Shown: positions 10,145 to 62,528 of the stretch, in pieces
Layout of the letters: each line of letters begins with the position of its first letter
How positions within the stretch are numbered: the stretch's first letter is position 1
Assembly: GCA_943350875.1 (NCBI GenBank)
Contig: CALRAL010000001.1
Location: 4,829-68,828, forward strand
Direction of reading: 5' to 3'
Source: Candidatus Nomurabacteria bacterium
GTDB lineage: Bacteria > Patescibacteriota > Minisyncoccia > Phycocordibacterales > UBA9973
Length of the DNA: 64,000 bases
Position numbers and translations under genes: made by a program
Notes under the pieces: generated by a model
Databases searched by the model: none
Told to the model about the DNA's origin: nothing
Seen by the model: only the letters and a program-made list of their open reading frames with translations

Positions 10145-10149
10145 ATTAT

Positions 10150-10959: not shown

Positions 10960-10990
10960 CCCCTCTCCTTATAAAGGAGAGGGGAAGATG
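10928..10990. repeat. GC-rich palindromic element, copy B (core CCCCTCTCCTTATAAAGGAGAGGGG, with CCTCACCCC flank repeats)
   Basis: Overlaps the last codons of folD; same family as 10092 and 11761. Confidence 0.7.
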
Positions 10991-11026
10991 TCGCTATTTT
11001 TCAGAATAAATTAATGAGTTAGTACT

Positions 11027-11410
11027 ATGAGTCAAAATATAAAATATACAGCTTTATTTGTTAAAGATATCGAGGATTTACTAAAAAGATTTCCACCTAA
11101 ACATCAAAAAATCTTTGGTCATCATTCAACAATTGAATTTGAGCCAGAAAATTTAAATGGAATTGAAACAGGCAAAGAATATTCTATAAAAATTATTGGA
11201 CGTGCCCATGATGAATTTGGAGATGATTTACTTGTTGAAAATTTAAAATCAAAAAATAAATATCCTCATATAACTTTATCTCGTGCAGAAAATGCACCGC
11301 CTTTATATTCAAAGATATTATTTGAAAAAGCCATAGCTTCTAATAATATTAAATATTTTAATAATGAAAAAGTTGAGGTCGTTGAAGGTTATGGAATAGG
11401 TGAAAAATAA
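11027..11410 (+). CDS. Putative 2H-phosphoesterase-like protein (two HxT/S motifs)
   Basis: GHHSTIEF and PHITLSR resemble the paired H-x-T/S-x motifs of LigT / cyclic phosphodiesterases; 127 aa. Weak. Confidence 0.35.
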   Translation: MSQNIKYTALFVKDIEDLLKRFPPKHQKIFGHHSTIEFEPENLNGIETGKEYSIKIIGRAHDEFGDDLLVENLKSKNKYPHITLSRAENAPPLYSKILFEKAIASNNIKYFNNEKVEVVEGYGIGEK

Positions 11411-11419
11411 AATCATTTT

Positions 11420-11818
11420 ATGACTCTTTTAAAAAACAAATCCAAGTTACTTCCAAGACGTAGAGAATTAAGAAAAAACCAGACTAAACAAGAAGAAATT
11501 TTATGGGAAAAGATAAGAAATCGGAAACTTGGAATTAAATTTAAAAGGCAGTATAGTATAGGTGGTTATGTTTTAGATTTTTATTCTCCAGAATGTAAAT
11601 TAGTTATAGAATTAGATGGTAACCAGCATTTAGCAAAAGAGAATGCTTTGTATGATAGATACAGGACAGAATATTTGGAAATTTTAGGTTGTGAAGTTTT
11701 AAGGATTAAAAATAGTGAATTAGATAAAAATTTGGAAAAAGTTTTATTACAAATTAAGAAGTTTACCCCTCTCCTTGATAAGGAGAGGGGAAGGGGTGAG
11801 GTGAATATGAATTTATGA
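11420..11818 (+). CDS. DUF559 / Vsr-like endonuclease domain protein
   Basis: LRKNQTKQEEILWEKIRNRKLGIKFKRQYSIGGYVLDFY...LVIELDGNQH...EILGCEVLRIKNSEL matches the DUF559 consensus. Confidence 0.65.
   Translation: MTLLKNKSKLLPRRRELRKNQTKQEEILWEKIRNRKLGIKFKRQYSIGGYVLDFYSPECKLVIELDGNQHLAKENALYDRYRTEYLEILGCEVLRIKNSELDKNLEKVLLQIKKFTPLLDKERGRGEVNMNL
11761..11806. repeat. GC-rich palindromic element, copy C
   Basis: Core identical to copy A, followed by GGGGTGAGGTGA; overlaps the 3' end of the DUF559 gene and abuts the PAP2 start. Confidence 0.7.
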
Positions 11819-21238: not shown

Positions 21239-21244
21239 AATTGT

Positions 21245-21547
21245 TGCGGGGAACCGAATCGAACGGTTGTCTTAAGGTTATGCTTTACCACTATAGTTTT
21301 CACTACAAAAATTTTGTGGTCTGGACTATACCATCTCCTTTTCTAAAAAATAAATTAAAGATTAAGGAGCTCGCCATCTAGTCTCTACACTTTTATCTTT
21401 AGTTAAACACCAAAGAATTTAGCTCGGAATTGTCTTTCTACAAAATATGCAGATAGGATTTCTCCGAATTTGACGAGTACACACCCCTATGTTTCCAAAG
21501 AGGGGGCCCATATTTTCTAACGCTGAGCCTTATGAGATACCACTTCT
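21245..21547 (-). tRNA. Initiator-type tRNA-Met(CAT) interrupted in the anticodon loop by a ~233-nt putative group I intron
   Basis: Minus-strand 5' exon 21547-21516: CGCGGGG-TA-GAGA-AGTGGTA-TCTC-A-TAAGG-CT. Minus-strand 3' exon 21282-21245: CATAA-CCTTA-AGAC-AACCG-TTCGATT-CGGTT-CCCCGCA-A. Joined, these give a cloverleaf with C1·A72, anticodon CAU and loop CUCAUAA. The exon ends in U and the intron ends in G (21283). The intron carries GTAGAGACTAGATGG (R-like) and GAGATGGTATAGTCCAGAC (S-like). Confidence 0.6.
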
Positions 21548-21614
21548 CTACCCCGCGATGTTTTCTATGATACATTAAAAAATTAGTTTTTGCAAATGTA
21601 ACTTATGATTTTCT

Positions 21615-22889: not shown

Positions 22890-22965
22890 GCCGATGTAGC
22901 TCAGTTGGTAGAGCATCGCTTTCGTAAAGCGAGGGTCGACAGTTCAATCCTGTCCATCGGCTCCA
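22890..22965 (+). tRNA. tRNA-Thr (CGT) with encoded CCA
   Basis: GCCGATG-TA-GCTC-AGTTGGTA-GAGC-A-TCGCT-TTCGTAA-AGCGA-GGGTC-GACAG-TTCAATC-CTGTC-CATCGGC-T-CCA. The last ~5 nt coincide with the start of the recombinase-element inverted repeat. Confidence 0.85.
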
Positions 22966-24493
22966 AAACCCGACTTTTTTGTTGGGAACTCACAAAGGAG
23001 TGGGCGTCGCAAAGCGACGCCCATGCTGTTTGCATTTGTTTTGCGGGGGGATTCAGAAATTCTGGCGCGCTTGCGCGCACTAATTTGTTTTGGAGGAGGA
23101 GGTTCGAGCCAAAGATTTCTTTGGCACAGACCTTTTTGCAAAAAAGGTCTGTATCCAATGCAATTTTTTCCATATTCTGGGCTTTATTTATCCATTTTTG
23201 CATCGGTTCGAGCCACAATTTTTGTTTACCTTCCGAACGAGAAATTTCTGTCTCCAGCGACTTTTTCTCGGATAACAATTTTGATTTTTCAGAACGATAA
23301 ATTTCCTTTTCTATATCTTGGTCTAAATATCCGTCTAAAAGTCGCTGGAGCTTCACCACGATGTCTTGTATCTTCTTCTCGTTCTCCGAAACAAAAATTT
23401 GAACAGATTGGGCGGATTCCGTTTTGTCTTTTTCAAGTCTCATATTCAAATAATCCGCCCAATCTTGCGGCATAGAAACTTTTTGCAAGAGTGATGAAAT
23501 TTGTTCGTCCAACGACTCTTGGCGAATACAAGGTTCAGGACATTTCATATCTCGGCGTTTCTTGGTGCAACGATAGTAAGTGTAAAAATGTTGAGTTCCG
23601 TTAAGCTGTGTCTTCACCTTGTATTCGCCAGTGATCATCATTCCGCAAGTGGCACATGATAACAAACCACAATATGCTTGCGGTTCATTTTTCATTTTAT
23701 GTCGTGGACGACCTCTTTCTTTCATCACTTCTTGCACTTTGTCCCAAAGTCTCTTATCCACGATTGGCTCATGCTTGCCCTCATACACTTCTTTATTAAA
23801 TCTAAAATGTCCGTAATAAAATGGATTGGATAAAATGAAAGTGGCACGGGTTCGGTGGATTTTCTTTCCGTTTTTTGCAAAAAGATTATTCTGCGCCAAA
23901 AACATACCGATAGTGTCTAGTGTTTGATTTCCCTCTGAATACATCTCAAACGCCTTGAGAATAACAGGCGCGGACTTTTTATCAACTGCGATAGTTTTTG
24001 TTCGTGAATCGTTGATATAACCAACAGGAGTTAGTCCTGGATATTCTCCGCGCCTAACTTTTTGGCGCATCCCCCTTTTTGTATTTTCGGAAAGAGAATC
24101 CACATAATACTTACTTTGCCCAAACGCCATGTTGAGCATAAATTTTCCTTGTGAAGTGCTATCGCACCAAAATGTTGGAAATTTTAGCGTAGCAAGTTTC
24201 TCTGTGTCGAGGAGGTAAATTACTCGTCCACCATCAACGCTATTTCTTGCGAGACGATCCGGATGCCAAGCGAGAATGCTTCCGCCGAGTTTTTCAATCT
24301 CATCTAACATTTTATTAAATATCGGACGACCTGGAATTTTCGCAGATTGTTTTTCCACATACTCGGCGGAAATTTCAATCGCTTCTCGCTTGGCATAGTC
24401 TCGCAATTCGTCCAACTGTGCTTCAATAGACAAAACTTGTTTATCCTCGACATCAGTAGACTTGCGAGCGTACAAAAAGAATTTTTGTGACAT
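22901..24493 (-). CDS. Large serine recombinase (resolvase/invertase N-terminal domain plus recombinase domain plus Zn ribbon)
   Basis: N-terminus FLYARKSTDVEDKQVLSIEAQLDELRDY (catalytic Ser in YARKST); Zn-ribbon Cys pairs CGLLSCATCG...CTKKRRDMKC; 530 aa. The C-terminal ~60 aa read through the TIR and antisense across the tRNA, so the true stop is uncertain. Confidence 0.8.
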   Translation of the reverse strand: MSQKFFLYARKSTDVEDKQVLSIEAQLDELRDYAKREAIEISAEYVEKQSAKIPGRPIFNKMLDEIEKLGGSILAWHPDRLARNSVDGGRVIYLLDTEKLATLKFPTFWCDSTSQGKFMLNMAFGQSKYYVDSLSENTKRGMRQKVRRGEYPGLTPVGYINDSRTKTIAVDKKSAPVILKAFEMYSEGNQTLDTIGMFLAQNNLFAKNGKKIHRTRATFILSNPFYYGHFRFNKEVYEGKHEPIVDKRLWDKVQEVMKERGRPRHKMKNEPQAYCGLLSCATCGMMITGEYKVKTQLNGTQHFYTYYRCTKKRRDMKCPEPCIRQESLDEQISSLLQKVSMPQDWADYLNMRLEKDKTESAQSVQIFVSENEKKIQDIVVKLQRLLDGYLDQDIEKEIYRSEKSKLLSEKKSLETEISRSEGKQKLWLEPMQKWINKAQNMEKIALDTDLFCKKVCAKEIFGSNLLLQNKLVRASAPEFLNPPAKQMQTAWASLCDAHSFVSSQQKSRVLEPMDRIELSTLALRKRCSTN

Positions 24494-24811
24494 ATATTTT
24501 TTTGTTAAAGCAGAAATGACTATTCCAGTGTTGAAACCTTAACGCTAATTAAGATATCTGGAATAGTCATTTCTGCTAATTAGCTAATAACTGGTTTCAA
24601 CATTTCTAGTATAGCAAAAAATATTTGAGAACAAAAATTCTTTTTGAATAATTGCAAAAATTGCATTAGATTCCGAACCTCCTCCTCCAAAACAAATTAG
24701 TGCGCGCAAGCGCGCCAGAATTTCTGAATCCCCCCGCAAAACAAATGCAAACAGCATGGGCGTCGCTTTGCGACGCCCACTCCTTTGTGAGTTCCCAACA
24801 AAAAAGTCGGG
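22961..24811 (-). mobile_element. Serine-recombinase element 1: recombinase gene bounded by perfect ~140-bp terminal inverted repeats (22961-23102 / 24670-24811)
   Basis: The reverse complement of 24670-24811 is identical to 22961-23102 (CTCCAAAACCCGACTTTTTTGTTGGGAACTCACAAAGGAGTGGGCGTCGCAAAGCGACGCCCATGC...GGAGGAGGAGGTTCG). The outer end overlaps the 3' CCA end of tRNA-Thr(CGT). Confidence 0.75.
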
Positions 24812-25130
24812 TTTTGGAGTGTCTTTACGATTCCGCTCGAACTTACTTTATCAAAAATTCCTGAGAATATCCACAAGCGTTCCCCGCGCGCTAAAGCGCC
24901 ACCACGCGAAGCGTGGTGCTTCTGCTGAAGCAGAAGTGCGGGAAACGCTCTGCACCTCGCCACTAATGTTTTTCAAACGAGGCGAGGTGCAGAAATGCGG
25001 AACGCGAGCGAAATTTTGCGAAATGCTGGGGGTGTGGGGGAAAGTATTTCGCAAAAATTCGCTCGCGTACTTCCTGATTTTTTTTGGCAAATTAATTTTT
25101 TTGAATTTTTGCTCTCAGAGTTTTGAGCCT
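24812..25130. repeat. Inverted repeat C, left copy (~320 bp); partner at 28270-28602
   Basis: The reverse complement of 28270-28602 aligns along its full length with a few indels. The substitutions are compensatory within hairpins (CCACGCGAAGCGTGG vs CTGTGCGAAGCACAG; CTGCACCTCGCC...GGCGAGGTGCAG vs CTGCACTCCGCC...GGCGGAGTGCAG). Confidence 0.8.
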
Positions 25131-25355
25131 ACAATAAAAAAGTAAAATATGTTATAGTATATTTGCTGACAGATAAATATATTTAGAGCATTCATTGATG
25201 GTTTTTCCGTCAATCGCGTCCAATATTGGCATCCCAATATGAGGAAACACGATTGACGGTGAATGCCGTTTATCTGTCAGCACCTCTTTGTTGGGGTGCC
25301 TATTTTGTTTTTAGGTATCCAATACAAAGATTTTATAAATATAAATCTTAATAAA

Positions 25356-26189
25356 ATGGAAAACCTAGAGACACCCAAAAAAATTGAAACAAAATTTGAA
25401 AGATTAAAAAATTTTCTTGAAACACATAAAAATTCGATTGCAATGGTGTTTCATCGTCATGCCGAGCATACTAATGATAAAACTCAACCCGATGAATTTA
25501 GGAGATTGGCTATTGAAACTGATATAGATAAAACAATTGAGGCAGCAGGTTTAATTGATTTCGATTTAACAGTAGCATATTCTGTAAAAAGTTTACGTTC
25601 ATTTTTAACTGCTTATTATTTATTAAAACCAAATGATAGTATAAGTCTCGATCAAGAATCTCAAATTTTGCAATATGAAGCAATTCATTCTGGGCCAATG
25701 AAAAACAAAATACGTTCAAAAAAAGAACTAGATTATAAAGATCCAACAAAATTTAGTTTTTTTGAAGAATTAACAAAAGCTTTTAATGAAAACAAAATGT
25801 TGGAATTTTTAGTACATCATTCTGATGAATATGTTGCTAAGGGTGAAGATATTAGTGCTTACACTGTTGTGGCAAAAGATATAGCAAAAATTGCTCAAAC
25901 CTATATTAGATTTATTCCTAGGTGGAAAAATTTATCTACATCAAAATTTAACAATAAAAATCTATTTAGAACATTTTGTGCTAGAGAAATGGTATATGGA
26001 TGCTTTCGAGCGAAAATTACTGAGTTAGTTTCAGGAATTGAAGAGAGGGATTCGTTTGTTAAATATTATGATAAAAATTTAAGTCAAAAAGATATTGGGG
26101 TAATTATTATTAAAGATCAAGAAAATTTAGTTCTATTCGATGGTTTTGGACAATTAAGTTTTACAAGCTCAATTTTAGAAAAGATTTAA
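25356..26189 (+). CDS. Hypothetical protein (cargo gene 1)
   Basis: ORF 25263..26189; start trimmed to MENLETPKK downstream of the palindromic leader. No motif recognised. Confidence 0.4.
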   Translation: MENLETPKKIETKFERLKNFLETHKNSIAMVFHRHAEHTNDKTQPDEFRRLAIETDIDKTIEAAGLIDFDLTVAYSVKSLRSFLTAYYLLKPNDSISLDQESQILQYEAIHSGPMKNKIRSKKELDYKDPTKFSFFEELTKAFNENKMLEFLVHHSDEYVAKGEDISAYTVVAKDIAKIAQTYIRFIPRWKNLSTSKFNNKNLFRTFCAREMVYGCFRAKITELVSGIEERDSFVKYYDKNLSQKDIGVIIIKDQENLVLFDGFGQLSFTSSILEKI

Positions 26190-26199
26190 TTAGAAATTT

Positions 26200-27153
26200 A
26201 TGGCTTTACATAATTTAACATTGGGAATCCCTGTAAGAAATGAATCATTAAACTTAAAACAATTTATTAATTCTTTAAACATTTCTGTCGATTATTTACA
26301 AAATATCTACAAAGATATCAAGATTGAAATTATAGTTTGCATAAATGGCTCTACGGACAATTCAGAAAATATTATAAAAAATGAAATAATTGCCTCACAT
26401 TTAGACGTCCATCTAATTTTTAGCTCGGAGGGTAAATTAAATGCAATCGATGCTATTTTAAATTCTAAAAAATACAATGATCTAATTGGATTTATTGATG
26501 CAGATACTTTACTTGAGGTGTCGGCAATTTATGAATTGTATGCAGAAATTGTAGATAACAAAAATTTATTTGCAGTGTATTCAAATATGACCCCTAGGGG
26601 TAATGATAGTTTTATTTATAGAATACAGAAAAGCCATTATGATTCACGTTTCTCAAATACGAGAGGATATATTCACGGAAGATTTTACATTTTAAAAAAT
26701 GCTGATTTATTAAAAGTTGAAAGAATAAAAAGAAATAATAAAAAATGGATTTTAGAATACGGTCCGTTAGTTGATGATATATATCTTTCAAGGGTAATTG
26801 TAGCGACTTATGGAGTTGGCGCCATAAAAGAAGTTGAAAAATCAATTATTTATTTTAAACCACCGCAAAATCTAATAGATTTTTTCTTTGGTTATCGTAG
26901 AATTATTATTGAGCTCAAAAGATTATCTTTTTTATATCCCGAACATAATTTTATTCAGAAAAAATATTTTTCAAAAAATAGGTATGGGTTTAAAAAATAT
27001 AAAAATTATGAACAAAAATTTTTATATTTAATTTATCAAATAATTGTTCATTTCATTAAACTGATTGTCGGTTTGGAAATATTATTAATTAATTTTAAAA
27101 TTATAAAATTAAAACATGTCTGGAAAACAACACACTCAACAAAAGTTATTTAA
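26200..27153 (+). CDS. Family-2 glycosyltransferase
   Basis: LTLGIPVRNESLNLKQFINSL...IVCINGSTDNSENII...GFIDADTLLE (GT2 DxD motif). Confidence 0.6.
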   Translation: MALHNLTLGIPVRNESLNLKQFINSLNISVDYLQNIYKDIKIEIIVCINGSTDNSENIIKNEIIASHLDVHLIFSSEGKLNAIDAILNSKKYNDLIGFIDADTLLEVSAIYELYAEIVDNKNLFAVYSNMTPRGNDSFIYRIQKSHYDSRFSNTRGYIHGRFYILKNADLLKVERIKRNNKKWILEYGPLVDDIYLSRVIVATYGVGAIKEVEKSIIYFKPPQNLIDFFFGYRRIIIELKRLSFLYPEHNFIQKKYFSKNRYGFKKYKNYEQKFLYLIYQIIVHFIKLIVGLEILLINFKIIKLKHVWKTTHSTKVI

Positions 27154-27154
27154 T

Positions 27155-27733
27155 ATGGACAAATATTCCAAGTTAAATTTAGCATGTGGCCCAAAGGTAA
27201 AAAATAAATTTAAATTACCTTGGCTAAATGTTGATATCGATGGAAAAGCAGCTGATTTTATCTGTGATATAATGGTATTACAGAAAGAATGGAGTGGTAA
27301 ATTTGAAGAAGTTAGGGCTTCTCATGTATTAGAGCATATTTTTTTAGACGATGTGCCAAAAGTTTTATCCGAATGGATACGAGTATTAAAACCAAACGGC
27401 GTGTTAAGAATCATAGTTCCTGATCTTGATATTGTAATTGAGTCTTTAAACAGTGGTATTGATCAGAAAAAAAGGAAATCTTTATCGGTCGATACTACTA
27501 CCCCGATTTTATCTCAAATTTATGGATGGGGTTATTGGACAAAAAATACAAAAAAGGAATGGAGACACAGAATGATATATAATGAGAAACTTATTATTAA
27601 GATTTTGAAAAATCAGAAAAAATTAAAAAATATAAAAACCTACAAACAAGATCAAGATCCAGCATTTATATTCAAAATAAAAGATGATTCACAAAATATT
27701 TTTTCTTTATGTGTCCAAGCTCAAAAAAAGTAA
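27155..27733 (+). CDS. SAM-dependent methyltransferase (class I)
   Basis: LNLACGPKV...LNVDIDGKAADFICD...LKPNGVLRIIVPD resembles methyltransf_11/23-type motifs I, II and post-II. Confidence 0.5.
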   Translation: MDKYSKLNLACGPKVKNKFKLPWLNVDIDGKAADFICDIMVLQKEWSGKFEEVRASHVLEHIFLDDVPKVLSEWIRVLKPNGVLRIIVPDLDIVIESLNSGIDQKKRKSLSVDTTTPILSQIYGWGYWTKNTKKEWRHRMIYNEKLIIKILKNQKKLKNIKTYKQDQDPAFIFKIKDDSQNIFSLCVQAQKK

Positions 27734-27775
27734 AGTCGATTATATTTATTAGTATTAATAGTTTAAAATAAAATT

Positions 27776-28261
27776 ATGGAACAACCAATGGATAATAAAA
27801 TGAGTAGCAAAATAGAATCAACTAATTTAAAAATTGAATTTGTAAATTTAACTTTAGGAATTGAACCCTCTAATATTGAGACTTCCCACATAAGTGCCAT
27901 ATTTCTAGTTGGCATAAAAGACGGGATGATACTCGCTGCAAGAAATGAAAGAGGGTGGGATATCCCAGGAGGTCACGTAGATGCTGATGATACAGATTTG
28001 TATTCTGCATTAGTACGAGAAGTAGATGAAGAATCAGGTGTAACACTCAAAAAAGCTAAGCCTTTTGCTATCATGAGATTTGATGGAAAAGATAAATCAA
28101 TGCTGTTTTATGTATCCGATGCTTTTGAATTAGAAGAGTTTATACCAAAGGAAGATGCGTTTGAAAGACAAATGATGCCCATTCCAGAATTTATAGAAAA
28201 ATATAATTGGAAGAAAAACGTAATTCAACCAATAATTGAATATGCTATTCAAAATAAATAA
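27776..28261 (+). CDS. Nudix hydrolase
   Basis: Nudix box GGHVDADDTDLYSALVREVDEESGV (Gx5Ex7REVxEExG). Confidence 0.75.
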   Translation: MEQPMDNKMSSKIESTNLKIEFVNLTLGIEPSNIETSHISAIFLVGIKDGMILAARNERGWDIPGGHVDADDTDLYSALVREVDEESGVTLKKAKPFAIMRFDGKDKSMLFYVSDAFELEEFIPKEDAFERQMMPIPEFIEKYNWKKNVIQPIIEYAIQNK

Positions 28262-28269
28262 GAATTTAA

Positions 28270-28602
28270 ATTAAAGTATTTACTCCTCTCAAAACTCTGA
28301 GAGCAAAAATTCAAAAAAATTAATTTGCCAAAAAAAATCAAGAAGCACGCGAAGCGAATTTTGCGAAATACTTTCCCCCAAACCCCCAGCATTTCGCAAA
28401 ATTTCGCTCGCGTTCCGCATTTCTGCACTCCGCCTCCTTTGCCCCCAAAACATTGTGGCGGAGTGCAGAGCATTCTCCCGCACTTCTGCTTCAGCAGAAG
28501 CTCTGTGCTTCGCACAGAGGCGCTTCAGCGCGCGGGGAACGCTTGTGGATATTCTCACGAATTTTTGATAAAGTAAGTTCGAGCGGAATCGTAAAGACAC
28601 TC
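28270..28602. repeat. Inverted repeat C, right copy; ends exactly at the prfB ATG
   Basis: See 24812-25130; ...CGTAAAGACACTC|ATG. Confidence 0.8.
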
Positions 28603-29484
28603 ATGGAAAAAGAAGAAATACAAAATAAAATAGGTACATTAGAAAAGGAAATGACAAGTCCAGATTTTTGGAATGATAAAATAAAAGCGCAAAATATCAT
28701 AAAAGAAATTGCTGAATTAAAGTCAAAGAAAGAGGGTTTTGGAAAATATGATAAAGGGAATGCAATCATCACTATTATCTCTGGCGCAGGAGGGGATGAT
28801 TCTGAAGATTTTGCAAATATGTTGCTCCAAATGTATGTGAAATATGCTGGGAAAAAAGGCTGGGGTGTTTCTTTCATTCATGAAAATAAAAATGAACATG
28901 GTGGTTATAAAAATGTATCTTTTGAAATAGAGGGAAAGGGCGCTTATGGGAATTTAAAAAACGAAGGAGGAGTGCATCGTCTCGTACGTATTTCTCCTTT
29001 TAATGCTAAAAAATTACGTCATACTTCTTTTGCACTGGTTGAGGTTTTGCCAAAATTCTCAAAACTCGAAGAGAAGGATTTTGTGATTCCAGAAGCGGAT
29101 TTGAAAATAGAATTTGCTCGCTCCGGTGGTCCTGGCGGGCAAAATGTGAACAAGAGAGAGACTGCAGTTAGAGTGGTGCATATTCCAAGTGGTATAGCTG
29201 TGCATGCTTCAAATGAGCGTTCGCAAGAGCAGAATAGGGAGCGAGCAATGGCAATCCTGCGGGCTAAAATATTCAAAAAAGCTGAACAAGATAAAAAAAC
29301 AATAGAAGAAAGTCTAAAATTAACTAAAAATACTCAGATAGAGTGGGGGAATCAGATTCGTTCGTATGTTTTGCACCCGTATAAAATGGTGAAAGACCAT
29401 AGGACAGAAGCAGAGACTTCCAATGTTGACGAAGTCCTCGCTGGCGATTTAGAACTATTCATTGAAGCGGAGAAAAATTTGTAA
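28603..29484 (+). CDS. prfB: Peptide chain release factor 2 (SPF motif), apparently without a programmed +1 frameshift and with a short N-terminus
   Basis: RISPFNAKK (SPF tripeptide anticodon), GGQNVNKRETAVR (GGQ). The single ORF runs from MEKEEIQ with no CUU-UGA-type shift site. The upstream in-frame extension belongs to the repeat. Confidence 0.8.
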   Translation: MEKEEIQNKIGTLEKEMTSPDFWNDKIKAQNIIKEIAELKSKKEGFGKYDKGNAIITIISGAGGDDSEDFANMLLQMYVKYAGKKGWGVSFIHENKNEHGGYKNVSFEIEGKGAYGNLKNEGGVHRLVRISPFNAKKLRHTSFALVEVLPKFSKLEEKDFVIPEADLKIEFARSGGPGGQNVNKRETAVRVVHIPSGIAVHASNERSQEQNRERAMAILRAKIFKKAEQDKKTIEESLKLTKNTQIEWGNQIRSYVLHPYKMVKDHRTEAETSNVDEVLAGDLELFIEAEKNL

Positions 29485-29503
29485 TTGTGATACAATTAGT
29501 AGT

Positions 29504-30286
29504 ATGAACCCTTGGATACAGCTAAGTATTGATTACGCAAATCAGAGAAGTTATTTGGATGATCTTTTTAAAGTTTATCCAACTATACCAGATGGTATAC
29601 GCGAAATTAATGAAGAACTTTGGAAAAATATAGAAAACTCCTTCAAAAGTAAAAACAATAAAAACTTAATTGAAAATTTAGTTAAGTTAGATTTATTTCC
29701 TATCAAAGATTCCTATGTTGCTTATTTAAAGAAAGATAAAACAGCTTCTCTAAGAAATCCAAAAACAATATCAAGATTAGCAGGGCGTTTATATGAAATG
29801 GGTTTGAATACTATCTATGAACGTTGTTCAGAGCCAAAAGAAACAAATAGACAAATTGGTCCGTTGTTTCGTCGTTGGTTGAGTAGCAAATCTTTAGGTG
29901 TTCCATACTTGGAATCTACAGAATTTTTAGCTACAAAAGAAAATGCTGTGCTAGATGCAGGTGATGCAGAAATGATGACTTTTGCTAAAAAACATTTTAA
30001 TTATAAACACAATAAAGGGTTAGATTTTATTGCTCGTTTTAATGGTAAATATGTAATTGGGGAAGCGAAATTCTTGACTGACTTTGGTGGACATCAAAAT
30101 GCCCAATTTAATGATGCTATTTCTACAATAAAAACTAAGCATGTAAATGCAGTTAAAATAGCTATTTTAGATGGAGTTCTTTATATTAAAGGAAATAATA
30201 AAATGTATAGAAGTATTACGACAAAATATAAAAAAGAAAATATAATGAGTAGTCTTGTATTACGTGAATTTCTTTATCAACTTTAA
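29504..30286 (+). CDS. Putative Type II restriction endonuclease (PD-(D/E)xK)
   Basis: GLDFIARFNGKYVIGEAKF (D...E-A-K); directly upstream of and co-oriented with a DNA methyltransferase; start trimmed to MNPWIQL. Confidence 0.5.
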   Translation: MNPWIQLSIDYANQRSYLDDLFKVYPTIPDGIREINEELWKNIENSFKSKNNKNLIENLVKLDLFPIKDSYVAYLKKDKTASLRNPKTISRLAGRLYEMGLNTIYERCSEPKETNRQIGPLFRRWLSSKSLGVPYLESTEFLATKENAVLDAGDAEMMTFAKKHFNYKHNKGLDFIARFNGKYVIGEAKFLTDFGGHQNAQFNDAISTIKTKHVNAVKIAILDGVLYIKGNNKMYRSITTKYKKENIMSSLVLREFLYQL

Positions 30287-30294
30287 ATTTTTAT

Positions 30295-31521
30295 ATGTTT
30301 ATAACATACAAAAACAAAAAAGAAGAATTTGAGATCTTAAATACTCCAAAAGCGAGCCTAGAAATTATTTCAGGGAAAGGTTCAAAAAATAAACTTATTC
30401 AAGGTGATAATTTAAGTATTCTTCAGTCTTTAATGAAAGATTATAATTTGAAAGGAAAAATTGATTTGATTTATATTGATCCGCCTTTTGCCACCAATAC
30501 TGATTTTAAAATAGGAGATAGAACAAGTACTATCAGTAGTAGCAATCTTGATGAAATTGCGTATAGCGATACATTAATTGGGGATGATTTTTTGGAGTTT
30601 TTAAGAGAGAGATTAATTTTGCTTCGTGAATTATTGTCAGAAAGAGGCTCTATTTATTTACATATTGATTATAAAATTGGTCATTATGTAAAATTGATAA
30701 TGGATGAAGTTTTTGGAGTAAAAAACTTTCGTAATGATATAACCAGAATTAAATGCAACCCAAAAAATTTTCATAGAAAAGCATATGGCAATGTGAAAGA
30801 TATGATACTTTTTTATACAAAAAATGGAAATCCTATTTGGAATGATCCTCGTGTTGCTTTTTCGAATGAAGACGAAGAACGGTTATTTAAAAAAACTGAT
30901 AAAGATGGAAGAAAATACACAACAATACCATTACATGCTCCAGGAGAAACAACAAAGGGAAATACGGGTAAAGAATGGCGTGGTGTTAAACCACCAAAAG
31001 GACGGCATTGGAGAACCGACCCAAAAATTCTTGAAGAATGGGACAAAGAAGGTTTGATTGAGTGGTCAAAAAATGATGTTCCAAGAAAAAAAATTTATAT
31101 TGATGAAAGGGATGGTAAAAAAACACAAGATATTTGGGAGTTTAAAGATCCGCAATATCCCAATTATCCAACCGAAAAAAATCTTAATCTGCTTAAATTT
31201 ATTATTTCCGCTTCATCTAATAAAGATAGTATTGTTTTAGATTGTTTTTGTGGTTCAGGTACAACATTAATAGGTGCACAAGAATTGGATAGGAATTGGA
31301 TAGGAATAGATCAGTCAGAACAAGCAATAAAAGTTATAAAAGAACGCTTAAATAAAATACAAAATGGTTTTTTTTCAAAAAAAGATTATGAATTTATTAT
31401 AGAAGGTAAAGAATTAATACATCCAAAATATACAATAGAAGATATGGTAAAAGGTATTACAAAGAAAAATAGACACAAGGAAGTTGATTGGGGGCCTCCA
31501 AGAGGTAAAGAAGTATGGTAG
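30295..31521 (+). CDS. DNA methyltransferase, beta-class (N6-adenine or N4-cytosine)
   Basis: IYIDPPFATNTDF (DPPF motif IV) N-terminal; LDCFCGSGTTLIGAQELDRNWIGID (motif I) C-terminal. Confidence 0.75.
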   Translation: MFITYKNKKEEFEILNTPKASLEIISGKGSKNKLIQGDNLSILQSLMKDYNLKGKIDLIYIDPPFATNTDFKIGDRTSTISSSNLDEIAYSDTLIGDDFLEFLRERLILLRELLSERGSIYLHIDYKIGHYVKLIMDEVFGVKNFRNDITRIKCNPKNFHRKAYGNVKDMILFYTKNGNPIWNDPRVAFSNEDEERLFKKTDKDGRKYTTIPLHAPGETTKGNTGKEWRGVKPPKGRHWRTDPKILEEWDKEGLIEWSKNDVPRKKIYIDERDGKKTQDIWEFKDPQYPNYPTEKNLNLLKFIISASSNKDSIVLDCFCGSGTTLIGAQELDRNWIGIDQSEQAIKVIKERLNKIQNGFFSKKDYEFIIEGKELIHPKYTIEDMVKGITKKNRHKEVDWGPPRGKEVW

Positions 31522-35555: not shown

Positions 35556-35760
35556 AAGACAAAATGTTGATAAAAAAGACGTGCTGTGTCTCTTGAATAA
35601 AATCCGAACTTTTTTCCAAAACAATCCGGATGCTGACTAATACCGACCAGCGCCTCGCAAAGCCTCGGCGCTCCGCCCTCGCCCCATTCCGCCTTTCATT
35701 CTAATTTTTTTCGCGGGGGGATTCTTTTTGAAATTGTATGGGCGGAAACGGGGCTCGGTC
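35556..35760. repeat. Inverted repeat D, left copy (~200 bp, GC-rich); partner at 43195-43382
   Basis: The reverse complement of 43195-43382 is essentially identical (TGCTGTGTCTCTTGAATAAAATCCGAAC...CGCCTCGCAAAGCCTCGGCG...CGCGGGGGGATTC...GGCTCGGTCGGGC). Confidence 0.8.
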
Positions 35761-36207
35761 GGGCTTCTTCTAAGGAAGAAGCGGTCGGTAAATACGTGGT
35801 GTCTCGGACATTATACTATTTTTGATCGTCCGTGACCAAAGGAGTCCATCCTCGGCATTCGCCTCGGACATTTCCGCTAGGGCTACTCGCGCCTAGATGT
35901 CTAGGTTTGGCGCGTTTCCTCGCTCTACGGCACTGTGGTGCCGGAGCTCGGGCGCCAGCAGTTTGGGGGAAGGAAGGAATCCTTCCCCCAGCTTCGCCTC
36001 GTCTCGGCAGGGCTCGACCAACCGGCTCAGCCAACCCCCATCCTCGTTTTCATATCCGAGTATTTCTCAAGATTTTAGATTATCCTTTGTTTATATCGTC
36101 GGCGCTCATCCTTTAGCCACGGACGCCCGTCGCGGAAATGTCCGAGGCTCAAATTCGTATTGCACACTTGACCCACCCTCCCGTTCGCGTGTGCGCAAAA
36201 CCCCGCT
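35761..36207. ncRNA. GC-rich ~450-bp non-coding island with many nested hairpins; candidate structured RNA of unknown class
   Basis: Much more GC-rich than surrounding CDSs (as are the rRNA and tRNAs here). Long-range inverted pair CGCCTCGGACATTTCCGC (35858) / GCGGAAATGTCCGAGG (36128); perfect 9-bp stem GGGGGAAGG-AAGGAAT-CCTTCCCCC; a TTGGTC-N18-TATAAT-like promoter on the minus strand near 35800-35830. The ORFs here are Arg/Pro/Ala-rich and look spurious. Confidence 0.4.
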
Positions 36208-36240
36208 CGCAAGGACGAGAGGCGTGCGAGCGGGGCTCCC
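36208..36240 (-). terminator. Rho-independent terminator for the minus-strand operon (11-bp stem CCCCGCTCGCA...TGCGAGCGGGG, then a T-tract on the minus strand)
   Basis: Seen directly after the stop of the nuclease gene. Confidence 0.65.
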
Positions 36241-36990
36241 TTAATTTTCTAAAACTTTTCTTGCGTTCCAGTATGCACACCAATCACAATGCTCACCAGA
36301 TTTTGGTATCACATCACTTTCTAAACATTTTTTAATTTCAAACAAAGTTTTTTCAACCCAAGAATCATCGCCTTTGTGTTCAATCAAATTGACATCAAAA
36401 TCAATTCGTTTATCAAATGCTTGTCTATCCATTTTTCCAGTGCAATATACAAAATAACCAATATCAGAGACCTTTAGCCCATTCTGCCTCAAAAGCCACT
36501 GATACACCTCCATTTGGCGTTTATAGCCATCTTGCCACTCTTTATCCAGCGCTTTAACAGCTTCATCCTTTGCAGTGGCTTTATAATCCACGACAATATA
36601 CTCGTCTTTTCCGTTGATCCACAAATCATCAATCGCACCAGTTACCAAAAGTCCAGTCGGCTCATGCAAATATCTAATACCACCAAAATTTCTTCGCCAT
36701 TCATCAAGCTCTTTGTGAGACATTGGTCGTGCGTCAATTCCATATTCTTTTTGTAGTGGGTGCTGTTCGTTTTTTGTACGGTATGAATCAAATTCTTGTT
36801 TAAGAAGATAATCAACCGCACTATTGATAGAAAACGGAAATCCGGGTACTCGTTTTACACCAAGTTTGTTATCAATGTAAAAACATCGTGGACACTCTTT
36901 AAACAAATCAATTTTAGAACGAGAAAGTTTCCAGTTCTTTCCGCCATAATTCCACCCATCACCTCTATTTGCTTTATAGTATTCAGACAT
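36241..36990 (-). CDS. Cas4/RecB-like PD-(D/E)xK nuclease with four Cys (CxxC...CxxC), putative Fe-S cluster
   Basis: N-terminal CPRC, core GAIDDLWING...DEYIVVDYKATAK (D...E-x-x-x-D-Y-K), C-terminal HCDWC. Confidence 0.65.
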   Translation of the reverse strand: MSEYYKANRGDGWNYGGKNWKLSRSKIDLFKECPRCFYIDNKLGVKRVPGFPFSINSAVDYLLKQEFDSYRTKNEQHPLQKEYGIDARPMSHKELDEWRRNFGGIRYLHEPTGLLVTGAIDDLWINGKDEYIVVDYKATAKDEAVKALDKEWQDGYKRQMEVYQWLLRQNGLKVSDIGYFVYCTGKMDRQAFDKRIDFDVNLIEHKGDDSWVEKTLFEIKKCLESDVIPKSGEHCDWCAYWNARKVLEN

Positions 36991-36999
36991 AAAATTTTG

Positions 37000-38502
37000 T
37001 TAATTATAATATGAGTCAAACACTTGCACCTCCTTTTTGCTAATAAGAGTCTTCGTTTTGCCGATTTTTGCCTTATCAATATATGACCTATCCTCGATTG
37101 ATTTTTTAATCACTGCATCATCAATCCAATCTGTAACAAAGATATTTTGCGCTTCACCATCTACGGCTTTACACAATTTCTCATTAAGCGATAGTTTAAA
37201 TTTCAAACCAATCGACATTCTCTGTATCCAAATTTCAATTAGTCCAGTATTTGAAAGATTACAAATCTTATTCTGAATTTTTAGAAGTAGTTCTTTTTTA
37301 GATTTTATTGTTAGTTTTGATATACAACTCGATACTAAACCAGCGATCACGGGAAAAGCGTTTGGATTGTTATAAGCAATATCAATAAGCAAACTTGTTA
37401 TCAGTTTTTGTTGATTATAAAAATCTTTGTCATTAACCGCATCGAGAATTTTAGACAGTCTATTTTTAAGAGTTCCTGAATTTGGATGCCACTTTCCAAT
37501 TTGTTGGACAATCATTAACTGCCGGAGTAATTCTTTTTTTGATAATTTTTTAGGAACGGCTTCAAATTTAAGAGCCTCTATCTTGTCGGGTTTTATTGAG
37601 CCTGTAACAACATCGTCGCAAGAATATGTTTTATTAGTATTTAGACGGAAACCGAATCCTATCAGTGTTTCGCTTAGACATTTTAGAATTATATCTCCAT
37701 CCATTGTATCATTCGTGAAAATTCTATAATCATCTCGATACCGAAGTATGTGAAATTTTTTATCTTTCAACGTAGTATTAAGTTTGTTTGATAATTCAGT
37801 ATCAGCATAACCTAGGACTATCTCTGCTATAAAATCCATCAAAATACTTCCTTGTGGTATTCCATTAGTTTGACCATAAGACATTGCTTGAACATGGTGA
37901 TCAATTTTATTTCCAAATAAGTCTGCATATTTTTGCTTTTTCTTTGATTCTTCTTTTGTATGAATAGCCCAAGGTATTGAGTGCGTATAAATAGAGCCAT
38001 AACAATCAGTAATATCAGTCTGATATAAAAACTTATATTCCAAAGCTAGAGTTACAGATTTCTTTTCTACATTATTAACCCATTGCGAAATTTGAGATGC
38101 TCTTTGTTTAGATTTATATCTTGGCAATACAGGAATACTTTCGCATTCGATATTTTTATCACCTTGAAATTCTTTAAATCTATCTTGTAAAGATTTCCAG
38201 TTATCTTTCTGTGTGATTACATTTACTAGAGAAACATACAACAACGGGTTTATAATTTCATATTTTCTCCAAGCATATTTTCCATCCTTATTACCATATA
38301 AGATATGATTAACTGTTTCGTATTTTTTCGCTTTTTTAAGATCGTCAAATGTGAGTTCTTTATCTTTAAAATTCTTTGTAATAACAGAAAGTAATTTACT
38401 AAATGAAAAATAGGGTGGCAATTCTATATTAGAAAAGGATTCTTGGTTTATAAAGAATTTTTTTGCATCTGTTGGGTTTAAATTTAAGACATTTTTTGAC
38501 AT
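37000..38502 (-). CDS. Reverse transcriptase of the Abi/UG (defence-associated) type with an alpha-helical C-terminal extension
   Basis: RT motifs QTDITDCYGSIYTHSI (motif 2), NGIPQGSILMDFIAEIVL (motif 4, PQG), HILRYRDDYRIF (YxDD variant), LIGFGFRLNTNKT (motifs 6/7). About 180 aa N-terminal and ~200 aa helical C-terminal regions, with no maturase/En domains. Confidence 0.7.
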   Translation of the reverse strand: MSKNVLNLNPTDAKKFFINQESFSNIELPPYFSFSKLLSVITKNFKDKELTFDDLKKAKKYETVNHILYGNKDGKYAWRKYEIINPLLYVSLVNVITQKDNWKSLQDRFKEFQGDKNIECESIPVLPRYKSKQRASQISQWVNNVEKKSVTLALEYKFLYQTDITDCYGSIYTHSIPWAIHTKEESKKKQKYADLFGNKIDHHVQAMSYGQTNGIPQGSILMDFIAEIVLGYADTELSNKLNTTLKDKKFHILRYRDDYRIFTNDTMDGDIILKCLSETLIGFGFRLNTNKTYSCDDVVTGSIKPDKIEALKFEAVPKKLSKKELLRQLMIVQQIGKWHPNSGTLKNRLSKILDAVNDKDFYNQQKLITSLLIDIAYNNPNAFPVIAGLVSSCISKLTIKSKKELLLKIQNKICNLSNTGLIEIWIQRMSIGLKFKLSLNEKLCKAVDGEAQNIFVTDWIDDAVIKKSIEDRSYIDKAKIGKTKTLISKKEVQVFDSYYN

Positions 38503-38527
38503 ATTCTTTAGTAAACATGGAACGGAA

Positions 38528-40435
38528 CTATCTCCATAAATCTAAAATCGTATTCCTAAGCAAAACATCCTCTTTATTTAGATTGTTTCTTAATTTCTCT
38601 ACTTCATCGTACTTTTTCACTATTTTTATTTGTTCTGAAATTGATGGTAGTGGAATATATATTTTTTCCAATAAATCAGGCGGTGTTAGATATTTTCTAT
38701 TTGTTGATCCAGATGAAGCATTTGCCACTATAGACTCAAAGTCGCCTGATGAAATCACAAGATTAAGAAATTTTGGCAAGATTAAGTCAGTGTTTAATTT
38801 TGCGGTAGCCATGTTCGAAGTCACAACACAATCAGAATAATCTTTAGTTATTAATCCGAATCCACCAGATTTTGTATCAACCTTACACCAGAACAAAGAA
38901 TCATTTTTAACCGGTCTATATTTTAGAGTTTTCTTTAATTCTTTTCCCTTTACAACTTTAGAAATAAAACATCCTTTACCATGCGACCGCACTCCAAGAA
39001 CTTTATATTCCTTTTCATCGACAAGTGATATGGGTTTCTCATTATAAAATGATAGTACTTTTGATAATTTTACAAAATCATCATTTTCAGCATTATGATT
39101 TTTCAAGTATTCATTAGCTAACAGCTTTGATTGTTTACTTAGTAAAATACTTTCTTTTTTAACTATATGAAATACTAAATTGGTTTTGTGTGCTAGTTTA
39201 TAACTTCCTAAAATTGATTTCTTGATTTCATCTAGCAATTCTACACATAATGGTAAATCATTTTTTTCAAATTCTTTTCTTTGTAACCCCAAATCATAGC
39301 CGTCATTTTGAATATCGATAAAATACACAGAATCACTCTTTTTTGAAATCTCTTTATCAAAAAAGAGTATATTTGTTTTGTTGTCTGCGTAAGGATTAAA
39401 AACTCCTGAGGGAAGTGAGATTACAGCCCACAACCAATTATCTTTAACCAATTTTGTTCTAAGAGATCTAAAAGAGCTTTGGGTGTTAAATACTACTCCT
39501 TCAGGAACGATTACTCCGCCTCTACCGTTAATCCCTAAATGTTCTAACATATAATCAACAAAAAGAACTTCCGCTTTATTTGCTTGAACAGAAAATCTTT
39601 TGTGTGGCTTGATTCCGCCTGTTGGTGTCATAAAGGGAGGATTTGCCATTATTACATCGTACATTTCGTCCCACTTCTCATCGCTTGAAAGTGTGTCGTA
39701 TTCAAAAATTTTAGGCTCGGCGAAACCATGCAAATACATATTTACTTTTGAAAGTTTTACCATGTCAGGAGAAATATCATAGCCGACTAAATTATTCATC
39801 AATTTTTCTTTTTCGTCGGGGGTAAGTGGCTTGTCTTTTTGTTGTTTGAGAATATGTTTGTATGCAGAAATTAAAAATCCAGCCGTACCGCAAGCAGGAT
39901 CTAAAATTTTATCTCCTTTCTTTGGGTCTACTACCTCGGCTATAAAATCAATAATGTGGCGTGGTGTGCGAAATTGTCCTGCATCGCCTTGAGAGCCGAG
40001 AATAGAGAGTAAATATTCAAAAGCATTTCCTAAATCTTCGCTGTGGTCATAAGTAAAACCGTTAATTTCTTTCAAAAACAAAGTTAAAGTTTCGGGACTT
40101 CGGTATGGAAGAAAGGCATCTTTGAAAATATCTCGGAATAATTGTGGGATGTGTGGATTTTGAGACATTTTAGCAACGGCTTCGCCATAAAGCTCTAAAC
40201 GCTCATGTCCACCGAGTTTTTGGTCAAGTAATTTCGTCCACGCATATTTTTCAAAACCTTTTGTGAAAAATCTTGCTTTTCCGCCAAGTTCAATCGCTTC
40301 TTTATCCATATCGTCCATAAACTTGTAAATCAAAGCCGTTGTGATTTGTTCAACTTGGGCTTTTGGGTCGGGGACTTTGCCGACAAGAATATTGCGGGCA
40401 GAGTCAATTTTTCGTTTTGTTTCTTGAGTAAGCAT
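38528..40435 (-). CDS. N6-adenine DNA methyltransferase fused to a single target-recognition domain (M-S fusion)
   Basis: Motif I ILDPACGTAGFLIS; motif IV MANPPF; C-terminal TRD ending in the HsdS-type conserved block IYIPLPSISEQIKIVKKYDEVEKL. Confidence 0.8.
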   Translation of the reverse strand: MLTQETKRKIDSARNILVGKVPDPKAQVEQITTALIYKFMDDMDKEAIELGGKARFFTKGFEKYAWTKLLDQKLGGHERLELYGEAVAKMSQNPHIPQLFRDIFKDAFLPYRSPETLTLFLKEINGFTYDHSEDLGNAFEYLLSILGSQGDAGQFRTPRHIIDFIAEVVDPKKGDKILDPACGTAGFLISAYKHILKQQKDKPLTPDEKEKLMNNLVGYDISPDMVKLSKVNMYLHGFAEPKIFEYDTLSSDEKWDEMYDVIMANPPFMTPTGGIKPHKRFSVQANKAEVLFVDYMLEHLGINGRGGVIVPEGVVFNTQSSFRSLRTKLVKDNWLWAVISLPSGVFNPYADNKTNILFFDKEISKKSDSVYFIDIQNDGYDLGLQRKEFEKNDLPLCVELLDEIKKSILGSYKLAHKTNLVFHIVKKESILLSKQSKLLANEYLKNHNAENDDFVKLSKVLSFYNEKPISLVDEKEYKVLGVRSHGKGCFISKVVKGKELKKTLKYRPVKNDSLFWCKVDTKSGGFGLITKDYSDCVVTSNMATAKLNTDLILPKFLNLVISSGDFESIVANASSGSTNRKYLTPPDLLEKIYIPLPSISEQIKIVKKYDEVEKLRNNLNKEDVLLRNTILDLWR

Positions 40436-40438
40436 AAT

Positions 40439-42925: not shown

Positions 42926-42931
42926 AAAAAT

Positions 42932-43219
42932 TTATTTCAAAAGTTCGCTACTGGAAATCCCCAACGCATTAGCAATCTTTTCCAAGGTGGAAAGAGTGGG
43001 GTTCATACGACCATTCTCAATATTGCTAATATATGCTCTATCCACACTCAAAGCGGTCGCAAGGTCTCCTTGCGACATATTCTTTTTCAGACGCCATTTT
43101 CTAAGGTTTTCACCTAATTTCTTGCCAGATGACATATTTTGTATTTTATTCTCACTTGCATCATATTGCAATCGTGTAATATAATGCACATAGCCCGACC
43201 GAGCCCCGTTTCCGCCCAT
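42932..43219 (-). CDS. XRE-family HTH transcriptional regulator (putative controller of the defence operon)
   Basis: LRKWRLKKNMSQGDLATALSVDRAYISNIENGRMNPTLSTLEKIANALGISSSEL. Confidence 0.75.
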   Translation of the reverse strand: MGGNGARSGYVHYITRLQYDASENKIQNMSSGKKLGENLRKWRLKKNMSQGDLATALSVDRAYISNIENGRMNPTLSTLEKIANALGISSSELLK

Positions 43220-45135: not shown

Positions 45136-45192
45136 AATATAATGATAGAATAATACAATAATAGTTTTTAATCAAATAGTTTTAAATTCATT

Positions 45193-62502: not shown

Positions 62503-62528
62503 TTGTTTTTTATTGTATAATTAAATAT

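Follow-up and report, generated by a model that had tools for sequence, protein, structure and literature searches.

Two abutting pairs of inverted arms point to a two-module serine recombinase island at a tRNA-Thr gene of a Candidatus Nomurabacteria bacterium

In a 64,000-nucleotide stretch of DNA from a Candidatus Nomurabacteria bacterium (assembly GCA_943350875.1, contig CALRAL010000001.1, positions 4,829 to 68,828; hereafter the window, in whose numbering all coordinates are given), a block of four genes beside a serine recombinase gene is enclosed by two inverted copies of a sequence of about 320 bp, the second of which ends at the start codon of prfB. What kind of element has such ends, and what are they for? 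With high confidence, we identify 22961-28602 as a 5.6-kb island that a large serine recombinase (LSR) integrated into a tRNA-Thr(CGU) gene, at its discriminator/CCA end, and in which the 320-bp pair forms the ends of a cargo module. The broader picture, in which an LSR island with the attachment-site (att) junctions described below is built on a family-wide two-module plan, is likely when both parts are taken jointly, and any specific functional role of its spare attP site and its duplicated arms is proposed tentatively.

Two inverted pairs enclose the cargo and the recombinase gene

A repeat search and pairwise alignment bear out the inverted copies reported by the initial annotation, one abutting the recombinase repeat and the other ending at the prfB ATG. 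The inner cargo arm, A (A_near), occupies 24817-25127 on the forward strand, and the outer arm, A' (A_far), occupies 28288-28602 as the reverse complement, so placed that its last base is 28602 and the prfB ATG starts at 28603. By blastn the two arms are 91.2% identical over 317 columns with five gap openings, a length and identity far beyond chance. The first ~50 nt of A form a conserved half-site, TGTCTTTACGATTCCGCTCGAACTTACTTTATC, predicted below to be of the P type, and the rest is a hairpin-rich domain. Between the arms lies the cargo (25128-28287, forward strand), whose gene content, from the list of open reading frames (ORFs) and Pfam, is as first described: a hypothetical gene (25263-26189), a family-2 glycosyltransferase (GT2; 26200-27153), a methyltransferase (27116-27733) and a Nudix hydrolase (27776-28261). 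PADLOC returned no defence match on this cargo except a weak one to the Nudix gene. A candidate extended −10 promoter for the cargo, found by eye, lies in unique DNA near 25148-25160.

Protein coding inside the arms was considered and rejected. ORFs do occur within the copies (24756-25145 on the forward strand, 28289-28600 and 28249-28515 on the reverse strand); indels between A and A' break their frames, and 24756-25145 and 28289-28600 gave no significant Pfam match and a single sub-threshold one, in agreement with the non-coding nature first proposed for the repeats.

A whole-window repeat search finds a perfect 146-nt inverted pair, 22961-23106 and 24674-24819, around the LSR gene. The tRNA-side arm, R1 (R_down; 22961-23106, forward strand), is 100% complementary to 24674-24819, and the inverted copy R1' (R_up; 24674-24819, forward strand) is 99.3–100% identical to R1 in two assemblies. 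The two pairs are contiguous, with the inner arm A adjoining 24674-24819 and sharing with it the bases GAG/TGGAG at 24815-24819. At the other end, the last five nucleotides of tRNA-Thr(CGU) (22890-22965, forward strand; ARAGORN, Rfam), CTCCA, are the first five of R1. The LSR itself is encoded on the reverse strand as an open frame of 530 amino acids (22901-24493) with the Pfam domains Resolvase, Recombinase and Zn_ribbon_recom (PF00239, PF07508 and PF13408, found in both recombinases of the window), and its closest match in the Protein Data Bank is the A118/LI integrase. R1 holds the last conserved recombinase codons (GSN...), and its inner boundary lies at these family-invariant codons; beyond about residue 480 the reading frame consists of R1 and then of the tRNA in antisense. 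Terminator-like hairpins occur in R1 on both strands.

Between the recombinase start codon and R1' lies a unique upstream region (24494-24673, reverse strand) with a promoter-like site at 24625-24652 on the forward strand, directed into R1' and on to A. The same region contains a 20-bp perfect palindrome (24509-24528 and 24558-24577, repeat I12) with a 29-nt spacer, which recurs in two related loci (L081 and L011) and could be an operator or a 5'-untranslated-region (5'-UTR) hairpin.

In the recombinase ORFs of the window and of its homologues (P0002–P0119), no stop codon precedes the tRNA, and the tails (GFEP..STN and others) vary with the target. Since the recombinase strand has a terminator-like hairpin (23023-23001) before the stop codon is reached, transcripts of the integrated gene might be of the non-stop kind.

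Three junctions have the pattern of attL, attP and attR

The three places at which arms meet each other or the host were compared. At junction s1 (22961-22965) the tRNA runs into the element as GGCTCCA|AAACCCGAC; at s2 (core 24815-24819, forward strand), read as the reverse complement, the sequence is GTAAAGACACTCCA|AAACCCGAC; and at s3 (core CTC, 28600-28602) it is GTAAAGACACTC|ATGGAAAAAG. The only bases common to all three are CTC (CTC/CTCCA) in this island and CAGC in a second island of the window, described below, which gives a core of 3–5 nt. Both element arms are intact in s2, and s1 and s3 each join one element arm to one host arm. This is the pattern expected of attL, attP and attR in a site-specific integration, with the oddity that a full, inverted attP sits inside the element. 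Judged from the sequences, tRNA|R is read as attL, A'|prfB as attR and R'.A as a complete inverted attP, the tRNA-Thr gene being the integration target that supplied the B arm of attB. The island comprises two modules, R.recombinase.R' and A.cargo.A', each within its own inverted att arms, which meet at the short core.

The core has a fixed polarity, being TGGTG when followed outward from R and CACCA when followed outward from either A or the tRNA. In circles formed by the recombinase module or the cargo module by itself, the palindromic R.R or A.A sites would have conflicting polarities, and such circles were rejected for this reason. A transposon or insertion sequence with terminal inverted repeats was rejected because the LSR is the sole mobility gene and the short direct repeat is the shared att core at the tRNA end. 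Tandem insertion of a recombinase-only and a cargo-only element would give direct rather than inverted repeats. A folded single-strand attP, in which R:R' and A:A' stems stack, is unlikely, as the three cores are identical rather than complementary and the crossover region would stay unpaired.

Half-site types and the position of crossover

The first ~50 nt of each cargo arm are conserved (TGTCTTTACRAC..GCTCGAACYTATTTT) and common to dozens of otherwise unrelated arms. Within them the motif TCGAAC resembles the tRNA T-loop. Counted from the core TGG, the first base of the TCGAA-type motif is at +18 of the tRNA in 44 of 68 loci and at +22 of the A arm in 48 of 66, a modal shift of +4. In serine integrases, the motif contacted by DNA-binding domain 2 (DBD2) lies nearer the centre in attB than in attP, by a predicted 5 bp for many enzymes and by 4 bp in the SPbeta structures (PMC11722253). 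Given this rule and the +4 offset, the A arm is typed as a P half-site and the tRNA as a B half-site, with TCGAAC as the putative DBD2-bound motif. From the bases common to the three junctions and the symmetry of the inner motifs, crossover would occur around tRNA positions 72–73. Profiles of the half-sites (nhmmer) contained too little information to map sites.

The G-S-N codons of the recombinase are always GGC TCG AAC despite the AT-rich genome, and lie at the inner ends of both R arms (23097-23106 and 24674-24683). They repeat the GCTCGAAC motif of the cargo-arm half-site (24836-24843), which is likewise T-loop-like; this usage hints at a DNA-level constraint at the inner boundary of R.

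Many cargo arms, read outward, end in a −10-like box (TATAAT or TACAAT) 2–5 nt from the core (for example L054, L012 and L042). In the window (28588-28602) there is a weaker TAAAGA 5 nt before the prfB ATG, spaced as in the leaderless-type prfB promoters of relatives. Such a box could be an outward promoter or simply a recombinase-binding motif.

A second island at a tRNA-Gln gene

The window contains a second, mirror-image island of the same plan at 35583-45068, both inverted pairs of which are 100% identical by repeat search. A 183-nt pair of cargo arms (35583-35765 and 43192-43374) encloses 7.4 kb, and a 133-nt pair of recombinase arms (43371-43503 and 44936-45068) encloses the second recombinase (43587-45125, forward strand), which has the same Pfam domains as the first. 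The two pairs adjoin at the 4-nt core CAGC (43371-43374), and the outer of the two recombinase arms terminates on the 3' end of a tRNA-Gln gene (45063-45137, reverse strand). Close to the cores (GTGTCT..., ..CCGAAC) the first and second islands have recognisably related arms, which also share GGCTCGAACC at the inner end of R and a GCGTCGCTTTGCGACGC hairpin; otherwise the arms differ. The cargo includes a type I restriction–modification (R-M) system (HsdR, fused HsdM-S and a controller protein), an AbiP2-type reverse transcriptase (E = 6e-178) and a Cas4-like nuclease.

The two-module plan recurs across related loci

Searches with the LSR gave 7981 homologues at E ≤ 1e-20, under names that include Nomurabacteria, Staskawiczbacteria and other Patescibacteria. 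We surveyed 162 loci: 80 from species-representative genomes, 80 metagenomic and two found by exact-protein look-up. This search for further copies in other genomes found the same layout in most of them. In an alignment of 16 members, conservation extends up to the invariant G-S-N and is followed by tails with motifs such as GFEP..STN that are antisense tRNA genes, which means that the recombinase genes of this family generally run into a tRNA. An R pair flanks the recombinase in 86 of the 95 loci with sufficient flank (median 143 nt, 90–100% identical), and a second, abutting A pair of 112–405 nt, enclosing 1.1–6.9 kb, is present in 27 of the 39 loci with more than 4 kb upstream. At 81 loci, covering 14 amino-acid types, a convergent tRNA 3' end lies at the outer end of the recombinase arm. 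The junction triplet (R...TGG+N(N)|tRNA, R...core|A and flank...core|A) was found in every family locus where it is readable, and the family core is complementary to the discriminator together with CCA. On the host side, the flanking sequence is in many cases the next tRNA or a terminator hairpin. No simple version lacking the inner R.A junction was found among loci with enough flank.

Close relatives of the window enzyme (75–92% identical) are found at genes for tRNA-Thr (CGU, UGU and GGU), -Ala, -Phe, -Cys, -Leu, -Tyr and other tRNAs. Among the viral contigs of IMG/VR only relatives of at most 43% identity were present; the family is therefore not a phage integrase family in that collection.

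Many of the contigs stop precisely within the repeats, and their ends overlap by 55, 99 or 127 nt (for example L096, L103, L127 and L138); repeats produce such ends in short-read assemblies. A few contigs (L116 and L160) look like fold-back joins with a recombinase at both ends, and bins assign family contigs of this kind to unrelated taxa (Bacteroidetes, Phycisphaerae and Gammaproteobacteria).

Rearrangement of modules and evolution of arms

Several loci differ from the window in how the modules are arranged. Two of them, L147 and L082, have convergent tRNA genes on both sides of the recombinase module, with an R arm fused to each at the core; recombination of the inner attP with a second tRNA should give this product. 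The two arms of L147 differ at several positions, so that its arrangement is not an artefact of repeat collapse. A tRNA lies upstream of the recombinase also in L016, L018, L044 and L065. The order downstream of the recombinase is R.core.A in L141, L151, L021 and L061, which would fit a circle, a flipped isomer, an array or a mis-join through the repeat. R-type and A-type modules alternate in stacked arrays in L101, L048, L078 and L064; these would follow if the resident tRNA|R junction remains a usable target. The direction of the cargo genes relative to the recombinase varies among loci, and the cargoes of L114 and L119, homologous at 76% identity over 3.5 kb, are oppositely oriented to it. 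Inversion was seen between diverged elements only, and the window has the same orientation in two assemblies. The second of these, a contig from another sample (L181), is 99.95% identical over 15 kb with the same gene order; as this independent assembly shows the same arrangement, the island is not an assembly artefact.

Arms are 90–100% identical within a locus and widely different between loci, which implies that they co-evolve through some copying process. The identities of the R pair and the A pair of a locus are modestly correlated (Spearman 0.41, p = 0.02, n = 32), compatible with both being reset together and then decaying. In the island studied here the R pair is perfect and the A pair 91% identical.

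The cargo arms contain a covarying four-way junction

The differences between A and A' had been attributed to selection on secondary structure, and the alignment contains the paired substitutions on which this claim was based: the hairpin CACCACGCGAAGCGTGGTG versus CTCTGTGCGAAGCACAGAG, with four paired changes, and the stem CTGCACCTCGCC/GGCGAGGTGCAG versus CTGCACTCCGCC/GGCGGAGTGCAG, with two. The two versions of hairpin 1 occur elsewhere as haplotypes of other elements, CACCAC... in L095 and L039, and CTCTGT... in L083, L084, L143, L159 and L001. The difference between A and A' therefore reflects mixing of alleles and not mutation in place followed by compensation, and the two arms probably derive from different parents.

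Joint folding of seven alignable arms with RNAalifold gives a shared fold, in which a closing helix around three hairpins is followed by two longer hairpins and T-runs. Pairing in this fold extends to 97.8% of cells, and both partners change in nine of its pairs; helix 7 has four compensatory pairs. In A, the closing helix and its three hairpins form a four-way junction of 76 nt (24875-24949, forward strand), and the two further hairpins (24950-24992 and 25002-25068) and T-runs occupy 24950-25086 (forward strand; repeat I5). A covariance model built from the first 76 nt of the structured domain matches this copy with 96.7 bits and the copy in A' (28469-28544, reverse strand) with 98.9 bits. 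Across the survey it matches the cargo arms of about 27 of the 162 loci, always in the core-to-inward sense, and arms lacking the four-way junction carry different hairpin-rich sequence. Among 25 distinct sequences, 20 of the 30 pairs change on both sides and 98.4% of cells pair, compared with 87.6% in shuffled controls (none of 500 reaching 98.4%) and 26–67% with the partners slid. The alignment of these 25 sequences was fitted to the model, which favours structure; the signal is large and was already visible in the unfitted alignment. For this sub-family of arms the claim of selection on secondary structure was right, and the compensatory changes point to a conserved single-strand structure inside A.

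That strand may be RNA or DNA. The core-to-inward strand of A continues from the recombinase sense strand through R. In the seven-sequence fold there are 20 G.U against 4 A.C cells, an excess on the core-to-inward strand that comes mostly from one invariant pair. GAA triloops of the GCGAAGC type, closed by C-G, are classic stable DNA mini-hairpins. Rfam 15 gave no match on either repeat, at the gathering threshold or at E ≤ 5.

Discussion

The identification of the island rests on the three junctions, the tRNA target, the offset of the half-site motif and the recurrence of the plan, and a number of observations weigh against it or against parts of it. An empty tRNA-Thr(CGU)|prfB site was not found among prfB relatives, which have no upstream tRNA; this search through prfB homologues failed because upstream synteny is not conserved. 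The B' flank of the island starts right at the prfB ATG, with a core of 3 nt only. In relatives, prfB has its own promoter, with a TATAAT box 7–8 nt before the ATG and no tRNA upstream; A' may have come to abut the ATG directly through use of a secondary site or through rearrangement at a later time. The prfB gene (28603-29484, forward strand; Pfam PCRF and RF-1) has its native length in the window, homologues being 293–295 amino acids, and is the B' flank rather than part of the element. Contigs in which the recombinase leads into R.A, which would fit a circle or a flipped isomer, may have been joined wrongly at the repeat. In canonical LSR systems, recombination of attP with attL, attR or a further attP does not occur. 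No conserved small gene that could encode a directionality factor was found in the recombinase module or in the two cargoes of the window, the cargoes of other loci having been partly scanned; the 180-nt recombinase upstream region has no ORF, and neither Pfam nor PADLOC assigns such a factor to either of these two cargoes. Decayed pairs are about half as divergent in the core-proximal 40 nt as in the interior, which falls short of proving constraint on both copies. At some loci the R arms are unlike each other (L011 and L014), probably from recombination within the conserved recombinase gene, so that identity of the arms is not obligatory for persistence. Finally, the G.U and A.C counts give a weak strand preference only, and fit RNA and DNA roles alike.

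The initial annotation took the gene block for an invertible or mobilisable cassette. Its link, as a mobilisable cassette, to the adjacent serine recombinase is supported; invertibility holds in so far as the cargo is inverted relative to the recombinase between L114 and L119, and the block is not a stand-alone inverton, being enclosed by one of two abutting inverted pairs. A phase-variable switch, in which the recombinase flips 25128-28287 so that a repeat-borne promoter or leader serves prfB and the recombinase alternately, would account for inverted repeats around a cargo beside a serine recombinase and for cargo that runs either way round among loci. The promoter toggle finds no support in the geometry: both copies face prfB and the recombinase simultaneously, and flipping would change neither, quite apart from the candidate promoter that the cargo has of its own. 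The repeats of 310 nt (146 nt for R), with att-type junctions at a tRNA, are unlike the 14–30 bp sites of invertases, the enzyme is a 530-residue LSR and not a small invertase, a promoter scan gave no promoter-like site inside A' on the prfB strand, and the two independent assemblies show a single orientation. We consider such a switch very unlikely. The chance that the structure is an artefact of fold-back or chimeric joins at the repeats is negligible for practical purposes: related contigs do break at repeats with overlaps of k-mer length, and L116 and L160 look like fold-backs, but A and A' differ at about 9% of positions and are thus two distinct copies, and the same structure appears in the assembly of a second sample and in more than 100 loci from different projects and assemblers.

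The repeats might instead be two copies of a structured non-coding RNA gene or cis-acting RNA, with selection on the RNA and the recombination-site reading secondary. The strong covariation in the 76-nt four-way junction and in hairpin 2, the constant sense of the structure relative to the core, with a last hairpin and then T-runs in the core-to-inward direction, the promoter-like site directed into R'.A and the excess of G.U over A.C cells are all as such an RNA would predict. Against it stand the lack of an Rfam match, GAA triloops that suit a DNA-level role equally well, and a distribution in which the four-way junction is confined to about 27 of 162 loci whereas the arm architecture is near-universal, the other arms having unrelated hairpin-rich sequence; it also leaves the junction cores and the adjacency to tRNA genes unexplained. 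Such a primary role of RNA is unlikely, if still a serious contender. Alternatively, the layout could be a neutral by-product, an ancestral inverted duplication of the attP region that gene conversion keeps alike in an ordinary LSR island, the internal attP having no role. The decay of arms to 80–93% identity in many loci, the existence of unlike R arms and the only about twofold reduction of divergence near the core agree with neutrality, and use of the internal site with a second tRNA, as in L147 and L082, would harm rather than help. Yet the plan is kept across recombinases down to about 50% identity and in many candidate phyla, the inner boundary of R is fixed at the GSN codons, a neutral duplication of 470 bp should often vanish from such compact genomes, and no simple version without any inner R.A junction turned up at loci with enough flank. 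We judge neutrality to be quite improbable.

For the two-module LSR island, the following sequence of events is proposed. The recombinase would join attP (A.core.R) to a tRNA 3' end, with crossover around tRNA positions 72–73, such that R restores the CCA end and supplies a trailer or terminator. The free form would be a circle resembling the 2-micron plasmid, with two inverted copies of attP separating the recombinase and cargo segments. The duplicated arms would let either attP serve, so that modules could invert or reshuffle, and a putative copy-correction process would keep the arms alike. The hairpin domain would function as a single strand; its likeliest roles are those of a transcribed insulator, a 3'-UTR or a processing signal. 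In its boldest form, the proposal would be that of an undescribed class of two-module LSR elements widespread in Patescibacteria, in which separate recombinase and cargo cassettes are capped by outward-facing att half-sites and linked by a spare attP that is functional; without the help of a directionality factor, a single recombinase would integrate at the CCA end of almost any tRNA, flip or exchange cassettes and occasionally rearrange the chromosome between tRNA genes, with the four-way junction as a required cis-acting RNA or extruded DNA. As a complete statement this is rather doubtful.

Comparison with known systems places the island closest to the phage-type large serine integrases (A118/LI, SPbeta, phiC31 and Bxb1), with which it shares the domain set, a short core, bounds formed by hybrid sites and the 4-nt attP offset. 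It differs from them in keeping a second intact, inverted attP, in having both attP arms duplicated over 110–400 nt as co-evolving inverted repeats, in the absence of phage genes among those seen in the islands, and in targeting the extreme 3' end of many tRNAs. The yeast 2-micron plasmid (FLP/FRT) is similar in that the inferred circle would have two long inverted repeats holding the recombinase target, with one segment encoding the recombinase, and in that inversion isomers are expected, which for the islands are seen across loci. The likeness is in layout only: FLP belongs to the tyrosine recombinases, the 2-micron plasmid replicates autonomously and amplifies its copy number by means of the flip, and no replication gene was seen in either island of the window, the element being found integrated.

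Small cargo elements moved by an LSR alone through a circular intermediate include Tn4451 (TnpX), Tn5397 (TndX) and SCCmec (CcrAB), and arrays of the SCC type stack at one site, like L101 and L078. To our knowledge, Tn4451, Tn5397 and SCCmec have short terminal repeats, no internal attP, no long module-flanking inverted repeats, and targets other than tRNA 3' ends. Islands with tyrosine integrases likewise insert at a tRNA 3' end and restore it, but with another class of recombinase, direct repeats of the tRNA 3' segment and no paired inverted arms. In the serine invertases (Hin, Gin, Cin and shufflon-like multi-inversion loci), inverted sites also bracket DNA beside or including the recombinase gene; their small enzymes, 26–34 bp sites, enhancer/Fis requirement and lack of mobility are features of which none was found in the island.

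We found no description of the two-module layout in the literature searched, the coverage of which was incomplete, so that its absence is unproven; the layout, the retained complete attP, the co-evolving arms and the covarying four-way junction appear to be undescribed. The complete attP kept by an integrated element, the attP arms evolving together as long inverted repeats and the want so far of a directionality factor depart from the standard serine-integrase scheme. Patescibacteria have tiny genomes, and few mobile elements have been described in them. The cargo of these islands is very varied (R-M systems, AbiP2 reverse transcriptase, glycosyltransferases, aminoacyl-tRNA synthetase, racemase and glycoside hydrolases), and together with the many tRNA target genes this suggests that the islands may be one of the main ways in which this radiation gains genes and undergoes tRNA-to-tRNA rearrangement. 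Enzymes that are 75–92% identical and use different tRNA ends may be of interest for integrase engineering. In practical terms, the repeats systematically break metagenome assemblies, and recombinase annotations acquire spurious antisense-tRNA tails.

Other features of the window

Downstream of prfB, the interval before ftsE (29462-31521) holds genes for a restriction enzyme of the Tsp45I family and for an N6/N4 DNA methylase. Relatives have prfB-ftsE-ftsX-pyrG without the restriction and methylase genes, and this segment therefore looks like a separate insertion.

Upstream of the island, a tRNA with the anticodon CAT, at about 21243-21600 on the reverse strand, has its anticodon loop split by a group I intron (21303-21535; Rfam, 78 bits). 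This tRNA is not called by ARAGORN alone, and in-silico removal of the intron restores a tRNA-like gene. Three copies of the palindrome CCCCTCTCCTTGATAAGGAGAGGGG, about 800 nt apart, are found at 10105-11790 (repeat pairs I6 and I8), and a 42-nt inverted pair (61059-61100 and 62476-62517, 93% identical) encloses 1.4 kb just downstream of the 16S rRNA gene.

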